Part shown: positions 3,443-15,697 of the stretch, piece by piece
How positions within the stretch are numbered: the first letter of the stretch is position 1
How the letters are laid out: each line of letters starts with the position of its first letter
Origin: Candidatus Micrarchaeota archaeon RBG_16_49_10
GTDB taxonomy: Archaea > Aenigmatarchaeota > Aenigmatarchaeia > CG10238-14
DNA: 64,000 bases
Assembly: GCA_001784635.1 (NCBI GenBank)
Contig: MFRS01000003.1
Location: 138,763-202,762 of the forward strand
Direction: 5' to 3'
Program-made: the position numbers and the translations under genes
Notes under the pieces: model-generated
What the model saw: the letters and a program-made list of their open reading frames with translations, nothing else
Database searches by the model: none
What the model was told of the DNA's origin: nothing

Positions 3443-3979
3443 TCAAGGCGATATCCTTGTGATTTTATAGTAGGTCACGTCTGATTCGGAATCGACTATG
3501 GCCCATATCATCTCCGTCCTTATGTTCTGCGCCAGCCTCACTGCCCTTGACAGCTCTGGGAACGAGCAGGAGAACTCCTCAGGTATGGCATGGACGACCC
3601 ATTTAGTGTGCTCATGCGCCTGTTTGGGCCCTTTTTTAAGTTTCACGCCCCTCTCATAGACCCGGAAGTCACAGCCGAACTTGAAGCCCGTCTTGACGAG
3701 GAAACCCTTCTCCCTCAGGTCTGTGTATACTACGAGCTTCGCGTGAAAATTCCTCTCCGTTTTCTTGCAGTAGTTGAAGAAATCCTCCTCGCTGAAAAAC
3801 TTCTTTTTTGACTCCGCACGAATCTTGAGCTTTCCCCTTTTCAGAAGGTACATAGACTCGATTAGCGTCAGCTCTACCTTTCCCTCTACCTCTTTCCCGT
3901 ATCCGGACTCGAACAACTCCTCAAAATCATCCTTTTGCCAGATCATTACCCTTTGCTCTGCAAGCTCCCCTTCAAACAT
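3443..3979 (-). CDS. endA: tRNA-splicing endonuclease, short alpha4-size form
   Basis: 178 aa. YLLKRGKL, VVYTDLREKGFLVKTGFKFGCDFRVYERG and HTKWVVHAI match the EndA catalytic-domain pattern (Tyr/His/Lys triad region). Confidence 0.9.
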   Translation of the reverse strand: MFEGELAEQRVMIWQKDDFEELFESGYGKEVEGKVELTLIESMYLLKRGKLKIRAESKKKFFSEEDFFNYCKKTERNFHAKLVVYTDLREKGFLVKTGFKFGCDFRVYERGVKLKKGPKQAHEHTKWVVHAIPEEFSCSFPELSRAVRLAQNIRTEMIWAIVDSESDVTYYKITRISP

Positions 3980-11562: not shown

Positions 11563-11994
11563 TTAGCCCAAAACTATAAGTATGGCGCCGCCCACCACGA
11601 GCAAGGCCCCCAGCGCAATCTTCAATGTGACCTTCTCTCCCAGGAAGAGGGCTGCGAGGATTATGACGAAGACCACGCTCAACCTGTCGATTGGTGCTAC
11701 CTTCGATGCCTGGCCGAGCTTCAATGCGATGAAGTAGAAGAGCCATGACAGTGCGCCAGCAACCCCGCTTAGGAGGATGTAGAAAAGTGCTTTCCGGTTG
11801 GAGAATATCTCCGGCACGTTGTGCAATTTTCCTGTCACTGCGATGGCTGCGAAAAGGAATAGGAACATAACCCCCGCCCTTACCATTGTGGCAGCGTTAG
11901 AGTCAACTCCCTGGAGACCTATCTTCCCAAATATGGCTACCAGAGAGGCCGTCAAAGCAGAGAGCAGCGCGAATATTAGCCACGAAACTTCCAT
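11563..11994 (-). CDS. Half-size EamA/DMT family transporter
   Basis: 143 aa with 4-5 TM helices and a typical EamA repeat pattern (APIDRLSVVFVIILAALFLGEK). Confidence 0.7.
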   Translation of the reverse strand: MEVSWLIFALLSALTASLVAIFGKIGLQGVDSNAATMVRAGVMFLFLFAAIAVTGKLHNVPEIFSNRKALFYILLSGVAGALSWLFYFIALKLGQASKVAPIDRLSVVFVIILAALFLGEKVTLKIALGALLVVGGAILIVLG

Positions 11995-12036
11995 GAAGAT
12001 TATTCTGTTCCCAGGTAAAAATATCTGACTTTAGCG

Positions 12037-12048
12037 ATGCAGGGGGAG
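12037..12048. repeat. Distal copy of the tRNA-Leu 3' end (att-like direct repeat, 12 nt)
   Basis: ATGCAGGGGGAG is identical to 13822-13833. The following bases (tgcgtttcaa) weakly resemble the tRNA T-arm (agatttgaa). Confidence 0.6.
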
Positions 12049-12058
12049 TGCGTTTCAA

Positions 12059-12136
12059 TTGTATTCAGGTTTTTCATGAATGTTAAACTGGGTTCATGTG
12101 CCTATTTAGGCTACACTAAAGTTGTATTCAAGTTTT
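12059..12136 (+). promoter_or_regulatory. Two 15-nt direct repeats upstream of the toxin-antitoxin operon (candidate operator) followed by a TATA-like box
   Basis: TTGTATTCAGGTTTT (12059-12073) and TTGTATTCAAGTTTT (12122-12136) match at 14 of 15 positions. The second lies just upstream of aagataaatatataag (about 12140-12156). Confidence 0.35.
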
Positions 12137-12186
12137 GAGGAAGATAAATATATAAGTATACTATGGTAATACTTTTAGGTGATTAT

Positions 12187-12381
12187 ATGGAAACTATCCC
12201 AGCAAAAGTCACTGAAAAATTGGTATTAGAGATGGACGAATTGATAAAAGAAGGTTGGTATGCCAACAGGTCCGAATTAATCAGAGATGCCATTAGGGAA
12301 ATGGTTAAAAGAGTCAAGATAGAGATGCTAGAGCAGGCTATAAGGGAAGATGTGGAATGGGGTCTGCATGGGAAAAATTGA
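12187..12381 (+). CDS. Ribbon-helix-helix (CopG-like) antitoxin
   Basis: METIPAKVTEKLVLEMDELIKEGWYANRSELIRDAIREMV is a typical RHH pattern. The ORF track starts at 12163, but that ATG lies too close to the TATA-like box, so I prefer the ATG at 12187. Confidence 0.7.
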   Translation: METIPAKVTEKLVLEMDELIKEGWYANRSELIRDAIREMVKRVKIEMLEQAIREDVEWGLHGKN

Positions 12382-12877
12382 GACAGCAATATCGAATTCT
12401 GGCCCATTAATTCATTTGTCGCAAATAGAGTCTTTTGGGCTTCTAGGTATAATAAAAAACATTTATATCACAAAAGAAGTTTTTGATGAAGTCTGCTCTT
12501 TCAGCTTGCCTGGAAGCAAGGAAGTGAAAAAATCCAGCAATATAAAAGTTAAAGACTTGAACTATAAGGCTAAGGATTTATCCAGGCTAATTTCTGACAA
12601 ATATTCGTTAGACTTGGGCGAGGCCACATCAATATCACTCGCAAAGCAGGAGAAAATAAACCTCTTCCTTACGGATGACCTTTCTGCTAAAGTTGTCGCC
12701 AAAGAGTTTGGTTTGCAAGTTCATGGGTCAATCGGTATAATTTTGAGAGCCTTCAGAGTTGGCGTTCTAAAAAAACAGGACGTGATAAGGTCAGTCCAAA
12801 ATTTGCACAAAAAATCCAGCATGTTTATAACGGCAGACCTAATCAGCTATGTGATTAAACAGATAGAAAAGGCCTAA
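12368..12877 (+). CDS. PIN-like nuclease toxin, DUF3368/COG2405 type
   Basis: SNSGPLIHLSQIESFGLLG...ITKEVFDEV...LDLGEATSISLAKQE...FLTDDLSAKVVAKEFGLQVHGSIGIILRA matches the DUF3368 pattern. The ATG at 12368 overlaps the antitoxin stop by 14 nt. Confidence 0.7.
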   Translation: MGKIETAISNSGPLIHLSQIESFGLLGIIKNIYITKEVFDEVCSFSLPGSKEVKKSSNIKVKDLNYKAKDLSRLISDKYSLDLGEATSISLAKQEKINLFLTDDLSAKVVAKEFGLQVHGSIGIILRAFRVGVLKKQDVIRSVQNLHKKSSMFITADLISYVIKQIEKA

Positions 12878-12884
12878 AAATCTC

Positions 12885-12897
12885 TATGCAGGGGGAG
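12885..12897. repeat. Middle copy of the tRNA-Leu 3' end (att-like direct repeat, 13 nt)
   Basis: TATGCAGGGGGAG is identical to 13821-13833. Confidence 0.65.
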
Positions 12898-12902
12898 CGC
12901 AG

Positions 12903-12924
12903 ACTCGTTATAAGAGGGAGCACA
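12903..12924. repeat. Left 22-bp terminal inverted repeat of the second cassette
   Basis: The reverse complement of actcgttataagagggagcaca is tgtgctccctcttataacgagt. This matches 13800-13821 (tgtgctccctgataaaacgagt) at 19 of 22 positions. Confidence 0.55.
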
Positions 12925-12985
12925 CTCAAGACGAAAGAGAAATAACTTTTGAAGTAGGAAAGAGTTTCTATAAATAATTCACATA

Positions 12986-13729
12986 CTATACTATTTCAAA
13001 TTCTTTCTCTAGAAACTTGATTTCATATTGATTTTCCCAAGGTCTAAAATCAGGTTCTTCTTCTGGACATTCTGTCCTATATTCAAATCTAAACTTGTAT
13101 CTCCCCGAATCTACTAAATGGTTCATATAACATGTATAGGTATCACCATTTGAACAATCGACAGTATCATAGACAATTTCTCTTTGGTCCCAGTGGAAGA
13201 ATTCCTGTGAATCTGAGATTTCACATATTGGAGTTGGAAATCCTGCTATGCAACCAATTGGACCATTTTCACAAATATCATTACATAAACCAACGCACCC
13301 TGGTTTTAAAAGTAATTTTTCCCAATTACCATTTTCATATCTGAAAACACTCCAAGAACCAGCACTATTTAGATAGATATTTTCATCTGTTCTTACAATA
13401 GCACTTATTTCTTCAAATTTGGCAAATTTGGTTTCCATTTCTATTTTCAATTCATTTTTTTCTTCTGTATCGCATATCGAATTATAATTATTATCGAGGC
13501 AACAAGAACTTCCAACTAATATATACGGTTTATTACACACTACTTTTCCTGATTTGAGCTCTCGAATTCTTAATTCTAACTGGCCATTTTCGTTTTGTAA
13601 ATTTTTAATTTCAGATAACAATCCCTCGTTGCTCTTTTGATTTTGGTTGATTACATAAAATAATCCTATTATAGCCAATAAAGAGACCATTCCAAATATA
13701 ATTAAGAGAGTATTATTAGATTTTTTCAT
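12986..13729 (-). CDS. Membrane-anchored coiled-coil protein with Cys-rich ectodomain (sole cargo of cassette 2)
   Basis: 247 aa. N-terminal TM (LLIIFGMVSLLAIIGLFYVI), a heptad-like LSEIKNLQNENGQLELRIRELK, then a CNKPYILVGSSCCLDNNYNSIC module and further Cys pairs. Confidence 0.6.
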   Translation of the reverse strand: MKKSNNTLLIIFGMVSLLAIIGLFYVINQNQKSNEGLLSEIKNLQNENGQLELRIRELKSGKVVCNKPYILVGSSCCLDNNYNSICDTEEKNELKIEMETKFAKFEEISAIVRTDENIYLNSAGSWSVFRYENGNWEKLLLKPGCVGLCNDICENGPIGCIAGFPTPICEISDSQEFFHWDQREIVYDTVDCSNGDTYTCYMNHLVDSGRYKFRFEYRTECPEEEPDFRPWENQYEIKFLEKEFEIV

Positions 13730-13799
13730 ATGTTGAAATATAGGATTACATATTTAAAATGGATTGAACTCTCTAAAAACGTACTTATATTTAAGTGTC

Positions 13800-13821
13800 T
13801 GTGCTCCCTGATAAAACGAGT
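13800..13821. repeat. Right 22-bp terminal inverted repeat of the second cassette
   Basis: See 12903-12924. This copy abuts the direct repeat and the tRNA 3' end. Confidence 0.55.
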
Positions 13822-13833
13822 ATGCAGGGGGAG
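13821..13833. repeat. Proximal copy of the direct repeat, overlapping the 3' acceptor/T-stem of tRNA-Leu
   Basis: TATGCAGGGGGAG. Bases 13823-13833 are the discriminator plus the last 10 nt of the tRNA. Confidence 0.65.
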
Positions 13834-13906
13834 AGATTTGAACTCTCGAACCCACTAAGGGACAGGCTTCTAAGGCCTGCGCCGTTGGCCGCTTGGCTAC
13901 CCCTGC
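13823..13906 (-). tRNA. tRNA-Leu (anticodon UAG)
   Basis: gcagggg ta gccaagcggccaacggc g caggc ctTAGaa gcctg tcccttagtgggttc gagag ttcaaat ctctc cccctgc a. The long variable arm fits Leu. 84 nt. Confidence 0.9.
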
Positions 13907-13947: not shown

Positions 13948-14133
13948 ATGGGATGCGTAACATTTTACATGAAGGTGCAGTGCAGCAGATGCGCTAAGGG
14001 TGTCAGCAAGGCCGTTTACGAGCATTCAAAGGCCAAGTACGGCAAGCCGCTGTGTTTCGATTGCCAGACCATCCTGAATTCAGGCAAGACTTTCAAGGAG
14101 AGGTTCAGGATAGTGGACACTATTGTTGATTAG
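13948..14133 (+). CDS. Small 4-Cys zinc-ribbon protein
   Basis: 61 aa with CSRC...CFDC. It sits on the opposite strand between tRNA-Leu and tRNA-Glu and is more GC-rich than its surroundings. Confidence 0.45.
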   Translation: MGCVTFYMKVQCSRCAKGVSKAVYEHSKAKYGKPLCFDCQTILNSGKTFKERFRIVDTIVD

Positions 14134-14135
14134 GA

Positions 14136-14232
14136 TGCTCCCGACGGGATTTGAACCCGTGTCTATGGCTCGAAAGGCCACTATCCTATCGGTTTTAAAC
14201 TATGTTAAATGACCGGGCTAGACTACGGGAGC
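14136..14232 (-). tRNA. tRNA-Glu (anticodon UUC) with a ~23-nt insertion in the D-loop (candidate non-canonical intron)
   Basis: gctcccg ta gtct agcccggtc [atttaacatagtttaaaaccgat] a ggat a gtggc cTTCga-type loop (ctttcga) gccat agac acggg ttcaaat cccgt cgggagc a. 97 nt. The cloverleaf only closes if 14188-14210 is removed or looped out. Confidence 0.7.
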
Positions 14233-14853
14233 TTTCATAAAACTTTCATATCTTTTTATATGTTTTATGTTTTTAAATCCCACTACTTTTTTGAATTTTT
14301 TTACCATCGCTCTATCGTAGATATATATTTGCGGAGTTTCGCTTCCAAAAGTCCACTTAGTGGTTCTGATACCTAAAACTTTCATACAACCTGAGAAGTC
14401 GACCATCAGTTTTGGCATTTTAGTCTTTAGAGAAATACAGGGATGGTCCCTTTTAGGTAAACAATAGACTGACCCATCAGTGTCAATAAGGCCTCTTAAA
14501 AACGCTTCCATGAAATCTGTGTTTTTGGAAACCCAATCAGGTATCCCTAGGTTATTATTAATTTTATTACCTCTTTTTAGACCGAAGTTTTCTAGTAAAA
14601 ATACCAAACTCCTATTTTGGTTCAATAGCGCTATACCATTGAAATTTTTGTATCTTTTAATATGAAAACTGAAACCGAGGGTTTGTTCAAACAATGGTTT
14701 AACATAATTAACTAAATACTCATAATCATCACTCAAATGCCCAGAAACAGTAGTTTGATAGACTTTTCGTCTTTTATCCACATATATACAACCATCCCCT
14801 GTCATAATGCCAAAAATTTCTGCCAAATTTCGCGTTTTTTCTATCATTTCCAT
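14218..14853 (-). CDS. Free-standing double-motif LAGLIDADG homing endonuclease
   Basis: 211 aa. Motif 1 is LAEIFGIMTGDGCIY and motif 2 is AFLRGLIDTDGSVY. The last four codons and the stop (gct ccc gta gtc tag) are nucleotides 1-15 of tRNA-Glu. Confidence 0.8.
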   Translation of the reverse strand: MEMIEKTRNLAEIFGIMTGDGCIYVDKRRKVYQTTVSGHLSDDYEYLVNYVKPLFEQTLGFSFHIKRYKNFNGIALLNQNRSLVFLLENFGLKRGNKINNNLGIPDWVSKNTDFMEAFLRGLIDTDGSVYCLPKRDHPCISLKTKMPKLMVDFSGCMKVLGIRTTKWTFGSETPQIYIYDRAMVKKFKKVVGFKNIKHIKRYESFMKAPVV

Positions 14854-14910
14854 GTTTCATGATTAAAAAATAATCATAATTATCTTTGGCGACAGGGTAG
14901 GGTTTGGATA

Positions 14911-14920
14911 AAAAAAAAAA
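14911..14920 (-). terminator. Oligo-T (T10) tract immediately after the tRNA-Val 3' end
   Basis: A10 on the plus strand at 14911-14920 is T10 on the transcribed strand, directly following the discriminator base. Oligo-T is the canonical archaeal termination signal. Confidence 0.5.
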
Positions 14921-15017
14921 TGGGCCGAGCAGGACTCGAACCTGCGATTTGCGGTTGCCAAAACAGGCAAATTCCGCCACGTCAAGGCGGCGTCTTAACC
15001 AACTGGACCATCGGCCC
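14921..15017 (-). tRNA. tRNA-Val (anticodon GAC) with a ~23-nt insertion in the variable-loop region (candidate non-canonical intron)
   Basis: gggccga tg gtcc agttggttaa gac g ccgcc ttGACgt ggcgg [aatttgcctgttttggcaaccgcaaatc] gcagg ttcgagt cctgc tcggccc a. 28 nt lie where 4-5 are expected, and the insert can self-pair (tttgc/gcaaa or ttgcc/ggcaa). 97 nt. Confidence 0.7.
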
Positions 15018-15063
15018 CCAATACAATTATACTTCGGCCATTAAATTTTAATCGTTTTTCCAG

Positions 15064-15591
15064 CTAACCTTTGAATCCAACCACTTTGAGCTGCGGGTAG
15101 GCGACCCTTTTATACACCAATCCCATGAGCTTTGAGATTACCCTCACCACAAAAAATGGGTTCTTCTCATCCAGAAAAAGGTATTCAGCACCTATCCTTT
15201 CCATCTTCAAACTCCTTAGGTGGTTTTCGAGATGCCAGGGCGTGTAAAGCGCGTAATGCCTGTCCTCTTCCCCGTAGCTGATTCTCTCATACCTGCCGAA
15301 ATGGGCTCCGGAAAATGGTGTGTGCCACCCCCAGAAGCTCGCGTTGTCCGTTATTAAAATCAGCTTACCGCCTTTCTTGAGGACTCTGATCATCTCTTCC
15401 AGAGCCTTGTTCGGGTTTTTCAGGTGCTCAAAAAGGTTTTCAGAGTACACCTCGTCGAAAAACCTATCAGGAAAAGGCAATTTCCCCCTTTCCACATCGC
15501 ACTTGATTACGCCCTTCCTCTGCGGATAGAGGTCGATGAAATGCGTCCCAAACGTCTGGTGGGCGCACCCCACGTTCAATATTTTTTCCAT
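15064..15591 (-). CDS. Class I SAM-dependent methyltransferase (Methyltransf_11-like)
   Basis: 175 aa. LNVGCA..., FFDEVYSENLFEHL and VLKKGGKLILI are typical post-I/II/III motifs. It is wedged between tRNA-Ser and tRNA-Val. Confidence 0.65.
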   Translation of the reverse strand: MEKILNVGCAHQTFGTHFIDLYPQRKGVIKCDVERGKLPFPDRFFDEVYSENLFEHLKNPNKALEEMIRVLKKGGKLILITDNASFWGWHTPFSGAHFGRYERISYGEEDRHYALYTPWHLENHLRSLKMERIGAEYLFLDEKNPFFVVRVISKLMGLVYKRVAYPQLKVVGFKG

Positions 15592-15613
15592 TGCTAATAC
15601 CCCTGAAAGACAG

Positions 15614-15697
15614 CGTCGAGGCCGGGATTTGAACCCGGAAGGAGCAAGCTCCGCTAGCTTAGCAGGCTAGTGCCCTACCTGATTAGGCGACCTCGAC
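15614..15697 (-). tRNA. tRNA-Ser (anticodon GCU)
   Basis: gtcgagg tc gcc taatcaggta ggc a ctagc ctGCTaa gctag cggagcttgctccttc ccggg ttcaaat cccgg cctcgac g. Long variable arm. 84 nt. Confidence 0.9.

Follow-up and report, generated by a model that had tools for sequence, protein, structure and literature searches.

We analysed a 64,000-nucleotide (nt) stretch of contig MFRS01000003.1 from Candidatus Micrarchaeota archaeon RBG_16_49_10, hereafter called the window, in which a free-standing gene for a LAGLIDADG homing endonuclease runs into the gene of tRNA-Glu(UUC) on the minus strand. Based on comparison with related loci, we consider it probable, with a probability of about 0.7, that the 688 nt at positions 14233-14920 are a selfish homing-endonuclease cassette which belongs to a lineage living on tRNA-Glu and tRNA-Gln genes of DPANN archaea, and which is seated inside the tRNA gene. 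The lineage itself is an observation: free-standing LAGLIDADG genes sit on tRNA-Glu and tRNA-Gln genes throughout DPANN. A full-text search of open-access papers and preprints found no published account of free-standing archaeal LAGLIDADG genes that are fused to tRNA genes.

Endonuclease genes that end in tRNA genes

The endonuclease open reading frame (ORF) encodes a single chain of 211 amino acids (aa) and occupies positions 14218-14853 of the minus strand; the tRNA-Glu(UUC) gene, 97 nt long, follows at 14136-14232 on the same strand. The 3' end of the ORF, gct ccc gta gtc TAG, is identical to nucleotides 1-15 of the tRNA (14218-14232), with the last five codons, including the stop, lying in the tRNA gene and the stop codon being tRNA nucleotides 13-15. 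The ORF lies outside any intron or intein: it has its own ATG 67 nt after the tRNA-Val(GAC) gene (14921-15017, minus strand; Rfam match over the full model, 55.7 bits) and ends in exon 1 of tRNA-Glu.

For the survey of relatives, one genome per species was scanned for 185,579 species, and the best 80 of the 270 relatives returned were kept. Loci were picked by the peptide GLIDTDG[SC][VI], and tRNA association was not part of the selection. All of these best 80 came from DPANN archaea, namely Woesearchaeota, Pacearchaeota, Micrarchaeota, Aenigmatarchaeota, Iainarchaeota and Nanoarchaeota. One locus was lost to a contig end; in all 79 informative loci, the ORF runs into or touches a tRNA gene on the same strand (69 junctions detected automatically and 10 by eye). 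Among the 69 automatically detected junctions, 40 have an overlap of 15 nt and 10 have one of 10 nt; the tRNA partner was tRNA-Gln in 34 and tRNA-Glu in 32 of 72 analysed loci. The commonest C-terminal tails of the proteins, SPVV, APVV and APIV, are the translated acceptor strand of the tRNA. The distinct contexts that were fetched first, using protein homologs down to 25% identity, gave the same picture, with a same-strand tRNA gene for Glu, Gln, Pro or Thr in nine out of nine. Also the same genome encodes a second free-standing LAGLIDADG protein, a paralog of 211 aa and 25% identity, whose TAG stop codon is formed by nucleotides 8-10 of a same-strand tRNA-Thr(GGU) gene. Since the junction is repeated in the paralog, in 9/9 contexts and in 79/79 scan loci, chance can be excluded as its cause. 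The paralog lies at positions 1425-2124 of locus L002 (G000 C15:32558-33254), and its tRNA-Thr(GGU) has no intron.

In a maximum-likelihood tree of 37 sequences, the endonucleases from tRNA-Glu genes formed a clade (support 98/93) that was sister to a clade from tRNA-Gln genes (95/92), both being joined with a support of 100/99. The endonuclease tree tracks tRNA identity and not host taxonomy. The gene of the window grouped with metagenome sequences and not with the syntenic allele of the metagenome locus L004, and its closest relative, L269 (65% identity), has an identical junction (..agttttatgaaa joined to GCTCC).

Some homologs stand in other surroundings. Two near-identical, very divergent ones of 330-354 aa (L027 and L029, in genomes G037 and G004) have no tRNA gene after the stop codon; instead, a conserved non-coding stretch (..GGCCGCTTGTTCCAGGTAGCG..) follows, which is perhaps another structured RNA gene. 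The homologs L025, L031 and L036 (G024, G053 and G018) abut a tRNA gene of the opposite strand, tail to tail, and in G018 the stop of the ORF touches the 3' end of tRNA-Val(GAC). More distant homologs, L042 and L043 (G036 and G032), are found inside 23S and 16S rRNA sequence, which is the classical location of rRNA introns, and an intein-borne homolog (L003) is present elsewhere in the genome of the window.

The protein was tested against the family of single-chain LAGLIDADG endonucleases with two motifs (Pfam PF14528 and PF05204). Pfam matched it to LAGLIDADG_3 (2.8e-13) and Hom_end (2.9e-4), and two LAGLIDADG motifs are present in the one chain, LAEIFGIMTGDG at residues 10-21 and LRGLIDTDG at residues 119-127. 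The catalytic residues D20 and D126 are both kept and are nearly invariant across 22 aligned homologs; judged by a strict pattern, motif 1 is acidic in 69 of the 79 related ORFs. Since a phmmer search against the chains of the Protein Data Bank (PDB) yielded a chance match only, a fold search was needed, and similarity to known structures was found in this way. The AlphaFold model built from the homolog alignment had a predicted local distance difference test (pLDDT) score of 94.6 and a predicted template modelling (pTM) score of 0.92, with confidence falling only at the last, tRNA-encoded residues, which form a disordered tail in the model. Foldseek placed I-Tsp061I first among PDB entries (template modelling (TM) score 0.72), followed by PI-PfuI, WhiA at rank 3 and I-DmoI (TM 0.63); the maturases bI3 and I-AniI were also among the matches. 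The probability was 1.00 for I-Tsp061I, PI-PfuI and I-DmoI, and the pseudo-dimeric alpha-beta-beta-alpha-beta-beta-alpha fold of the family was found. The classification that an earlier note on this DNA had proposed thus leads to LAGLIDADG_3 by profile and to an archaeal intron enzyme, I-Tsp061I, as the nearest fold. Degeneracy of the ORF, which the same note had named as an outcome that would tell against a homing element, was not seen: the ORF is intact with both catalytic aspartates, and the relatives are not degenerate. The 211-aa protein looks like a complete and active single-chain LAGLIDADG enzyme of the archaeal type without sign of inactivation. It is a short form, as an N-terminal extension of ~100 aa that many relatives carry is absent from the gene of the window and its closest relatives. 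This extension is conserved (..KLKKGKQKELI..W..LA..L....YL....NWGQ.KGGK.S; alignment columns ~55-150 in P0003, P0005, P0006, P0009, P0011 and others) and is perhaps an extra DNA-binding module.

The overlap had been read as a regulatory coupling, in which endonuclease and tRNA share a transcript and the cut by RNase P at tRNA nucleotide 1 removes the stop codon, so that a transcript can serve either tRNA maturation or translation of the endonuclease, but not both. On this view, it could be a selected device limiting the nuclease. In nearly all relatives the stop codon indeed lies inside the tRNA, there is neither a terminator nor room for one between ORF and tRNA, and the genome encodes RNase P RNA (109 bits), so that a conflict between RNase P and translation is possible. 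However, the reading frame over the tRNA varies, G1 being the first base of a codon here but the third in L004 and in the class with 10-nt overlap. Since the frame is not kept between relatives and the tail is disordered and of low confidence in the model, the tRNA-encoded tail appears to be incidental and not itself under selection. Moreover, a TATA-like box at promoter distance (see below) could give the tRNA its own transcript, and a stop-less message can still be made into protein when archaeal Pelota rescues the ribosomes. We consider a selected device of this kind very unlikely; from the sequences, the overlap looks like a structural by-product of the seat of the cassette on a tRNA gene.

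Endonuclease-less alleles and stranded tRNA 5' ends

The 5' sequence of tRNA-Glu was searched in 118 genomes of the same order, and all places found were fetched. In nine genomes of the same family (G004, G005, G006, G007, G009, G012, G014, G016 and G020), the gap between tRNA-Val(GAC) and tRNA-Glu(UUC) is 2-5 nt, and in two more genomes (G008 and G010) it is 37-40 nt. Upstream of the cluster, G005, G006, G008 and G020 have genes for a histone, aIF5A, a PqqD-like protein and a PRC-barrel protein exactly as in the window. Given these endonuclease-less syntenic relatives, the 688 nt must have been inserted into a tRNA cluster that was ancestrally Ser-Val-Glu. The spacer comparison thereby bears out the suggestion of the earlier note that a selfish, homing-type element is tied to the tRNA gene, and the uniform presence of the endonuclease that would have spoken against it is not what we found, as empty alleles exist at this very position with conserved synteny. 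A metagenome pattern search for an empty Val-Glu junction with the exact tRNA sequences of this genome found nothing.

Occupied alleles are patchily distributed. In the 118 genomes searched, the endonuclease gene immediately precedes 5 of the 58 tRNA-Glu(UUC) genes, two further occupied alleles being the metagenome loci L004 and L007, and any homolog at all was found in 28 of 61 relatives, none of them close within the same family. In the metagenome loci L004 and L270, tRNA-Val, endonuclease and tRNA-Glu follow one another as in the window. Occupied L004 is no closer to this genome than empty G005 (83% vs 80% identity of the PRC-barrel protein), and its endonuclease is 47% identical and not the sister of the one in the window. 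The upstream neighbour of the endonuclease gene varies, being tRNA-Val in the window, L004 and L270, an M24 peptidase gene in L019, and other genes in L139, L142 and L007; tRNA-Glu is the only constant partner among the occupied alleles. Thus, both a presence/absence polymorphism at a homologous site and a phylogeny unlike that of the host were found. In addition, one endonuclease-less tRNA-Glu allele (L124; G082 C13) keeps the last ~36 nt of the ORF (..FNNPYHKIRF) directly before the tRNA, including TTTAATAA at -32 to -25, and a 349-aa membrane-protein gene lies at the place which the endonuclease gene occupies in the related genome G059. By its sequence, this allele looks like a remnant of deletion or replacement.

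This distribution also bears on the idea of a domesticated LAGLIDADG protein, that is, a host factor (a WhiA-like DNA-binding regulator or a maturase-like RNA helper) that would serve tRNA expression or processing. The Foldseek matches to WhiA, bI3 and I-AniI, the persistence of the gene at the same tRNA in divergent lineages and an upstream promoter motif that is common to four other genes of the genome (see below) are in line with such a role. WhiA is not known to retain the catalytic acidic residues of LAGLIDADG nucleases, but both of these residues are kept here. A host factor for tRNA-Glu would, moreover, be expected to be universal, whereas the spread of the gene is patchy and a deletion remnant exists. 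We regard domestication as the least probable of the explanations considered.

The position of the cassette within the tRNA gene is suggested by related loci. We performed an ungapped search for second copies of tRNA nucleotides 1-21 at 72 loci, accepting 0-7 mismatches and, for each copy, p<=0.02 against shuffled queries. A second copy was found at 16-17 of the 72 loci, 740-985 nt upstream of the first and just ahead of the endonuclease start codon. The stranded copies that were inspected have a TATA-like box in front at promoter distance and no complete tRNA around them. The exact length of the duplication is 22 nt in L250 and 24 nt in L199, and it ends at ..GGTCA(A), which is where the D-loop intron of the functional copy starts. 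In these duplication-bearing relatives, the cassette clearly splits the tRNA gene and replaces its first 22-26 nt from the cassette's own 3' end. Since the replacement 5' end is carried by the cassette, the last codons of the ORF and the stop codon are cassette DNA in these relatives.

By analogy with these relatives, the cassette of the window would sit within the tRNA gene, having stranded the old promoter and tRNA nucleotides 1 to ~22-26 upstream and carrying a fresh copy of the stranded nucleotides at its 3' end. The enzyme would probably cut endonuclease-less, intron-less tRNA-Glu genes in the region of the D-arm, whereupon repair would copy the cassette, and the D-loop intron, or base changes where an intron is absent, would shield the rebuilt tRNA gene from a further cut. 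In the window, the old 5' piece would no longer be recognisable, the endonuclease gene would have gained a promoter type shared with host genes, and tRNA-Glu would have lost its co-transcription with tRNA-Val.

Plain intergenic homing would be a simpler explanation. The enzyme would then recognise the point where tRNA-Val ends and tRNA-Glu begins, or, more broadly, the first ~10 nt of tRNA-Glu together with its 5' flank, and its gene would have inserted precisely there; the tRNA 5' end would be resident DNA, and the ORF would extend to the first in-frame stop codon in it since the compact genome left no spacer. In agreement with this, the insert starts right after the final base of tRNA-Val and stops right before nucleotide 1 of tRNA-Glu, where empty alleles have 2-5 nt, and a LAGLIDADG gene classically makes its host immune by splitting a 20-22-bp site at its centre. 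In addition, no stranded fragment is demonstrable in the window, nor was one found by ungapped search in L004 or L270. On the other hand, occupied alleles of the same clade differ in their upstream neighbours, so that half of the proposed site is not conserved; the Val-Glu junction is weakened as the sole target by the same fact, as the clade sits at tRNA-Glu genes with unrelated upstream genes. Insertion at the junction would also not duplicate the first ~22 nt of the tRNA on both sides of the endonuclease gene, as seen in 16-17 of the 72 relatives, and the modal overlap of 15 nt together with a constant junction across phyla suggests that the end of the ORF and the start of the tRNA are inherited together. 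We therefore judge plain intergenic homing to be unlikely and continue with a cassette seated inside the tRNA gene.

tRNA introns and putative promoters around the cassette

The earlier note had remarked on odd insertions in both tRNA genes that flank the endonuclease gene. The insertions are real, but there is nothing odd about them: judged by sequence and predicted fold, both are well-formed bulge-helix-bulge introns, of 22 nt and 23 nt, respectively. The intron of tRNA-Glu lies in the D-loop (14188-14209, minus strand; identified by fold and by comparison with relatives) and separates GGTCA from AGGAT with the sequence TTTAACATAGTTTAAAACCGAT; exon CGGU pairs with intron ACCG over 4 bp, next to 3-nt bulges CAU and AUA. 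Its excision in silico gives the D-loop GTCTAGCCCGGTCAAGGAT, which is identical to that of intron-less relatives. The intron of tRNA-Val lies in the variable loop (14949-14971, minus strand; identified by fold), has a central helix GCGG/CCGC with bulges AAU and AAA, and leaves a variable loop of 5 nt upon excision. A tRNA splicing endonuclease is encoded in the genome, inside the window at ~3470-3748. Non-canonical bulge-helix-bulge introns are known from tRNA genes of small archaea (PMC4090602, PMC4033280), and ultrasmall archaea have a splicing endonuclease of broad specificity (PMC3239211). The introns described here are like these known ones in their succession of 3-nt bulge, 4-bp helix and 3-nt bulge at non-canonical positions (D-loop and variable loop), and do not differ from them in themselves; the new aspect is their association, both statistical and positional, with a neighbouring endonuclease cassette.

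In the order-level survey, introns within the first 33 tRNA positions were present in 7 of 8 endonuclease-bearing versus 24 of 101 endonuclease-less tRNA-Glu genes (Fisher test, 5.6e-4, with relatedness ignored). In a wider set, 40 of 61 Glu/Gln partners had a 5'-proximal intron, most often at the D-loop site. L269 has a 23-nt intron at the same D-loop site, defined by the same splice rule (22-23 nt), in a tRNA whose body differs at many positions, and versions of the D-loop intron of 12-13 nt occur both with and without an endonuclease gene. A tentative and rather doubtful extension of these results is that endonuclease cassettes create and spread non-canonical tRNA introns in DPANN, with the D-loop intron here being a footprint beside its maker. 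Each cassette would open an intact tRNA gene in the region of the D-arm and lodge there with a spare 5' exon, and the mini-intron left at the junction would make the rebuilt gene uncuttable and would outlast later decay of the endonuclease; such cassettes might perhaps also be a source of split or duplicated tRNA 5' halves.

The 67-nt spacer between tRNA-Val and the endonuclease ORF (14854-14920, minus strand) appears to be a remodelled promoter region. It starts with a run of T that likely terminates tRNA-Val; the run had been described as T10, and while its presence was confirmed, it comprises 11 residues (T11, 14910-14920). It is followed by the motif ATCCAAACCCTACCC (14895-14909), which is found upstream of other promoters of the genome, and by the TATA-like sequence ATAATTAT (14876-14883), 22 nt ahead of the endonuclease ATG. 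The general form of the motif, (T)CATCCAAACC(C/A)TACC, is 15-17 nt long and occurs five times in the 916-kb genome, where ~0.01 copies are expected by chance; the copies besides that of the window are at G000 C15:33321, C11:24032, C4:44934 and C19:2873. Each copy is located 52-66 nt upstream of an ATG, with a TATA-like box 26-29 nt downstream of the motif, and the genes in question are both free-standing endonuclease genes, a 375-aa gene, a 68-aa zinc-ribbon gene and a 427-aa gene. The repeated motif resembles a transcription-factor binding site. With a likely terminator, a motif common to four other genes and a TATA-like box in this order, the idea of the earlier note that the endonuclease gene has its own promoter is plausible.

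A candidate promoter for tRNA-Glu was found within the endonuclease gene. We built a position weight matrix from the upstream regions of 81 endonuclease-less tRNA-Glu genes, in which the consensus TTTAAATA mostly starts at -33 to -28. With this matrix, TATAAAAA at -28, inside the 3' end of the endonuclease gene, scored 5.6 bits compared to a training median of 5.2 bits, a value that only 3% of equal-size windows within endonuclease ORFs reach. The TATA-like box CATATAAAAAG (14252-14262, minus strand) spans the endonuclease codons K-H-I-K-R, 19-21 nt upstream of tRNA-Glu nucleotide 1, and could give tRNA-Glu its own transcript; the 36-nt remnant of the ORF that is retained in L124 speaks for such an internal promoter. 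In the ancestral cluster, tRNA-Val and tRNA-Glu stand too close together for a promoter to fit between them; here, T11 and the endonuclease gene part the two. Two routes to tRNA-Glu would be left: initiation at the box within the 3' part of the endonuclease gene, or transcripts that start at the endonuclease promoter, run on through the tRNA and are then cut by RNase P. As tRNA-Glu(UUC) is the sole tRNA-Glu found in the 83%-complete assembly, with one genomic match to the tRNA-Glu 5' pattern, the only such gene found would by either route now depend on cassette sequence, which would make precise loss of the cassette costly for the host.

Several results weigh against an active, intron-protected cassette inside the tRNA gene. 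The ungapped search for a stranded tRNA-Glu 5' fragment in this window was negative (p=0.9). A gapped match in the 67-nt spacer (reached by 0.2% of shuffles) was rejected, as it falls on the five-copy, genome-specific promoter motif that also precedes unrelated genes. Since no stranded fragment is demonstrable here, the placement inside the tRNA is taken from the relatives only. The endonuclease is 34-48% identical to the other occupied alleles compared, except for L269 with 65%, and this divergence may mean that it is a long resident which is no longer mobile. The intactness of motif 2 in the scan set is by construction, as the loci were selected on GLIDTDG[SC][VI]. Regarding the intron, 16 of 61 related loci have an intron-less tRNA beside the endonuclease gene, and one Glu allele (L019) is without a 5'-proximal intron; the intron is therefore not required for coexistence with the endonuclease gene. 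The same D-loop intron is also present in several endonuclease-less genomes. Finally, the internal TATA-like box is convincing in the window but weak in most other occupied alleles, scoring no better than background; an internal promoter is thus doubtful as a family-wide rule, although the L124 remnant favours it.

The surrounding tRNA cluster and known systems

All elements of the order described in the earlier note, tRNA-Ser, methyltransferase, tRNA-Val, endonuclease and tRNA-Glu with an overlap of 15 nt, were found on the minus strand at the places given there. The tRNA-Ser(GCU) gene was located at 15613-15697 by ARAGORN and at 15614-15697 by Rfam (58.9 bits), and the ORF of a class I S-adenosylmethionine (SAM)-dependent methyltransferase of 175 aa at 15064-15591 (Pfam Methyltransf_11, 5e-13). 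Of the spacers reported as 22, 46 and 67 nt, the latter two are exact, and the first is 21-22 nt depending on which end is chosen for tRNA-Ser. The next gene after tRNA-Glu is tRNA-Leu(UAG) at 13823-13906 (ARAGORN; T-arm and acceptor-stem scan). ARAGORN called tRNA-Ser and tRNA-Leu at this locus, missed both intron-bearing tRNAs, and mislabelled intron-bearing tRNAs when used with its intron option. We therefore used a scan of our own, which looks for the T-arm and then for the acceptor strand and its complement, and checked it on the window, where all four tRNA genes (Ser, Val, Glu and Leu) were recovered at full length. Because of the D-loop insertion, Rfam covers tRNA-Glu at model positions 8-63 only (35.2 bits); its ends come from the T-arm and acceptor-stem scan, and the cloverleaf is found in its minimum-free-energy fold. 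A 61-aa ORF with four cysteines on the plus strand (13948-14133) converges on tRNA-Glu and ends 3 nt from the tRNA 3' end, and tRNA-Glu is therefore without an oligo-T terminator of its own nearby. Beside tRNA-Leu(UAG) there is a stretch of low G+C content at ~11900-13850 (29-40% vs 45-55% around it), which contains a 247-aa ORF and others.

The methyltransferase gene, which had been taken as part of the same pattern of protein genes wedged between tRNAs, proved to be unrelated to it. In L004 and L270, the gap between tRNA-Ser and tRNA-Val is 3-4 nt, with no methyltransferase gene in it. The orthologs of this methyltransferase that turned up (46-55% identity) all belong to other families of the order and have no tRNA genes beside them, and we rejected the gene as a component of the endonuclease element on these grounds. 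Judged by this comparison, it is a separate, one-off insertion of an ordinary gene that landed in the same cluster. The restriction of its close orthologs to other families suggests lateral acquisition.

Archaeal LAGLIDADG endonucleases are known from rRNA introns and inteins. With I-Tsp061I, I-DmoI and I-PorI, which belong to bulge-helix-bulge introns of rRNA genes, the endonuclease of the window shares the fold, the size, the two motifs with catalytic acidic residues and the archaeal host, as well as a stable-RNA gene as target and an associated bulge-helix-bulge intron. In contrast to these enzymes, it is encoded by a free-standing ORF upstream of a tRNA gene, with its own start, a plausible promoter of its own and an end in the tRNA 5' exon; the associated intron is a 22-nt mini-intron without ORF, and the target gene encodes a tRNA and not an rRNA. 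Fungal mitochondrial mobile ORF elements, such as those of the Allomyces atp6 type, carry a replacement gene end. The relatives of the cassette are similar to these elements in that the cassette interrupts its target, restores it with a duplicate end and leaves the old end stranded. They differ in that the 5' end of a tRNA gene is replaced instead of the 3' end of a protein gene, and in the window the stranded fragment is undetectable.

Free-standing endonucleases and ORF-less introns reportedly cooperate in collaborative homing in the case of cyanophage F-CphI and the psbA intron. Collaborative (trans) homing has also been described for phage T4 mobE with the ORF-less I-TevIII intron (PMC2790892). 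The likeness consists in an endonuclease gene next to a gene with an ORF-less intron at, or close to, the presumed cut site, and in an intron that would protect its carrier and would be inherited together with the endonuclease gene, with 5'-proximal introns being enriched beside the endonuclease here. The difference is that the introns here are protein-spliced bulge-helix-bulge mini-introns and not group I ribozymes, and that a quarter of the related loci are intron-less. Phage T4 SegB is a free-standing homing endonuclease of the GIY-YIG type whose gene lies in a tRNA gene cluster, outside any intron or intein; double-strand-break repair favours the inheritance of this gene along with the tRNA sequence that flanks it (PMC2330249). 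SegB and the present endonuclease are both encoded by free-standing genes between tRNA genes; unlike the latter, SegB is of the GIY-YIG and not the LAGLIDADG type, belongs to a phage and not to a cell, and shows no overlap with a tRNA, no intron and no duplication of a tRNA 5' end.

For annotation, the finding means that gene callers take such ORFs as ordinary genes, while standard tRNA finders miss the partner tRNA. If the proposed origin is correct, these cassettes would make up a natural set of compact nucleases with specificities that follow minor differences among tRNA genes. They would also provide a testable mechanism for the origin of non-canonical introns and disrupted tRNA genes in small archaea, which is a long-standing puzzle. 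For the archaeon itself, the locus would be a case in which a selfish gene makes its own loss difficult by occupying the promoter region of an essential tRNA gene that is present in one copy.

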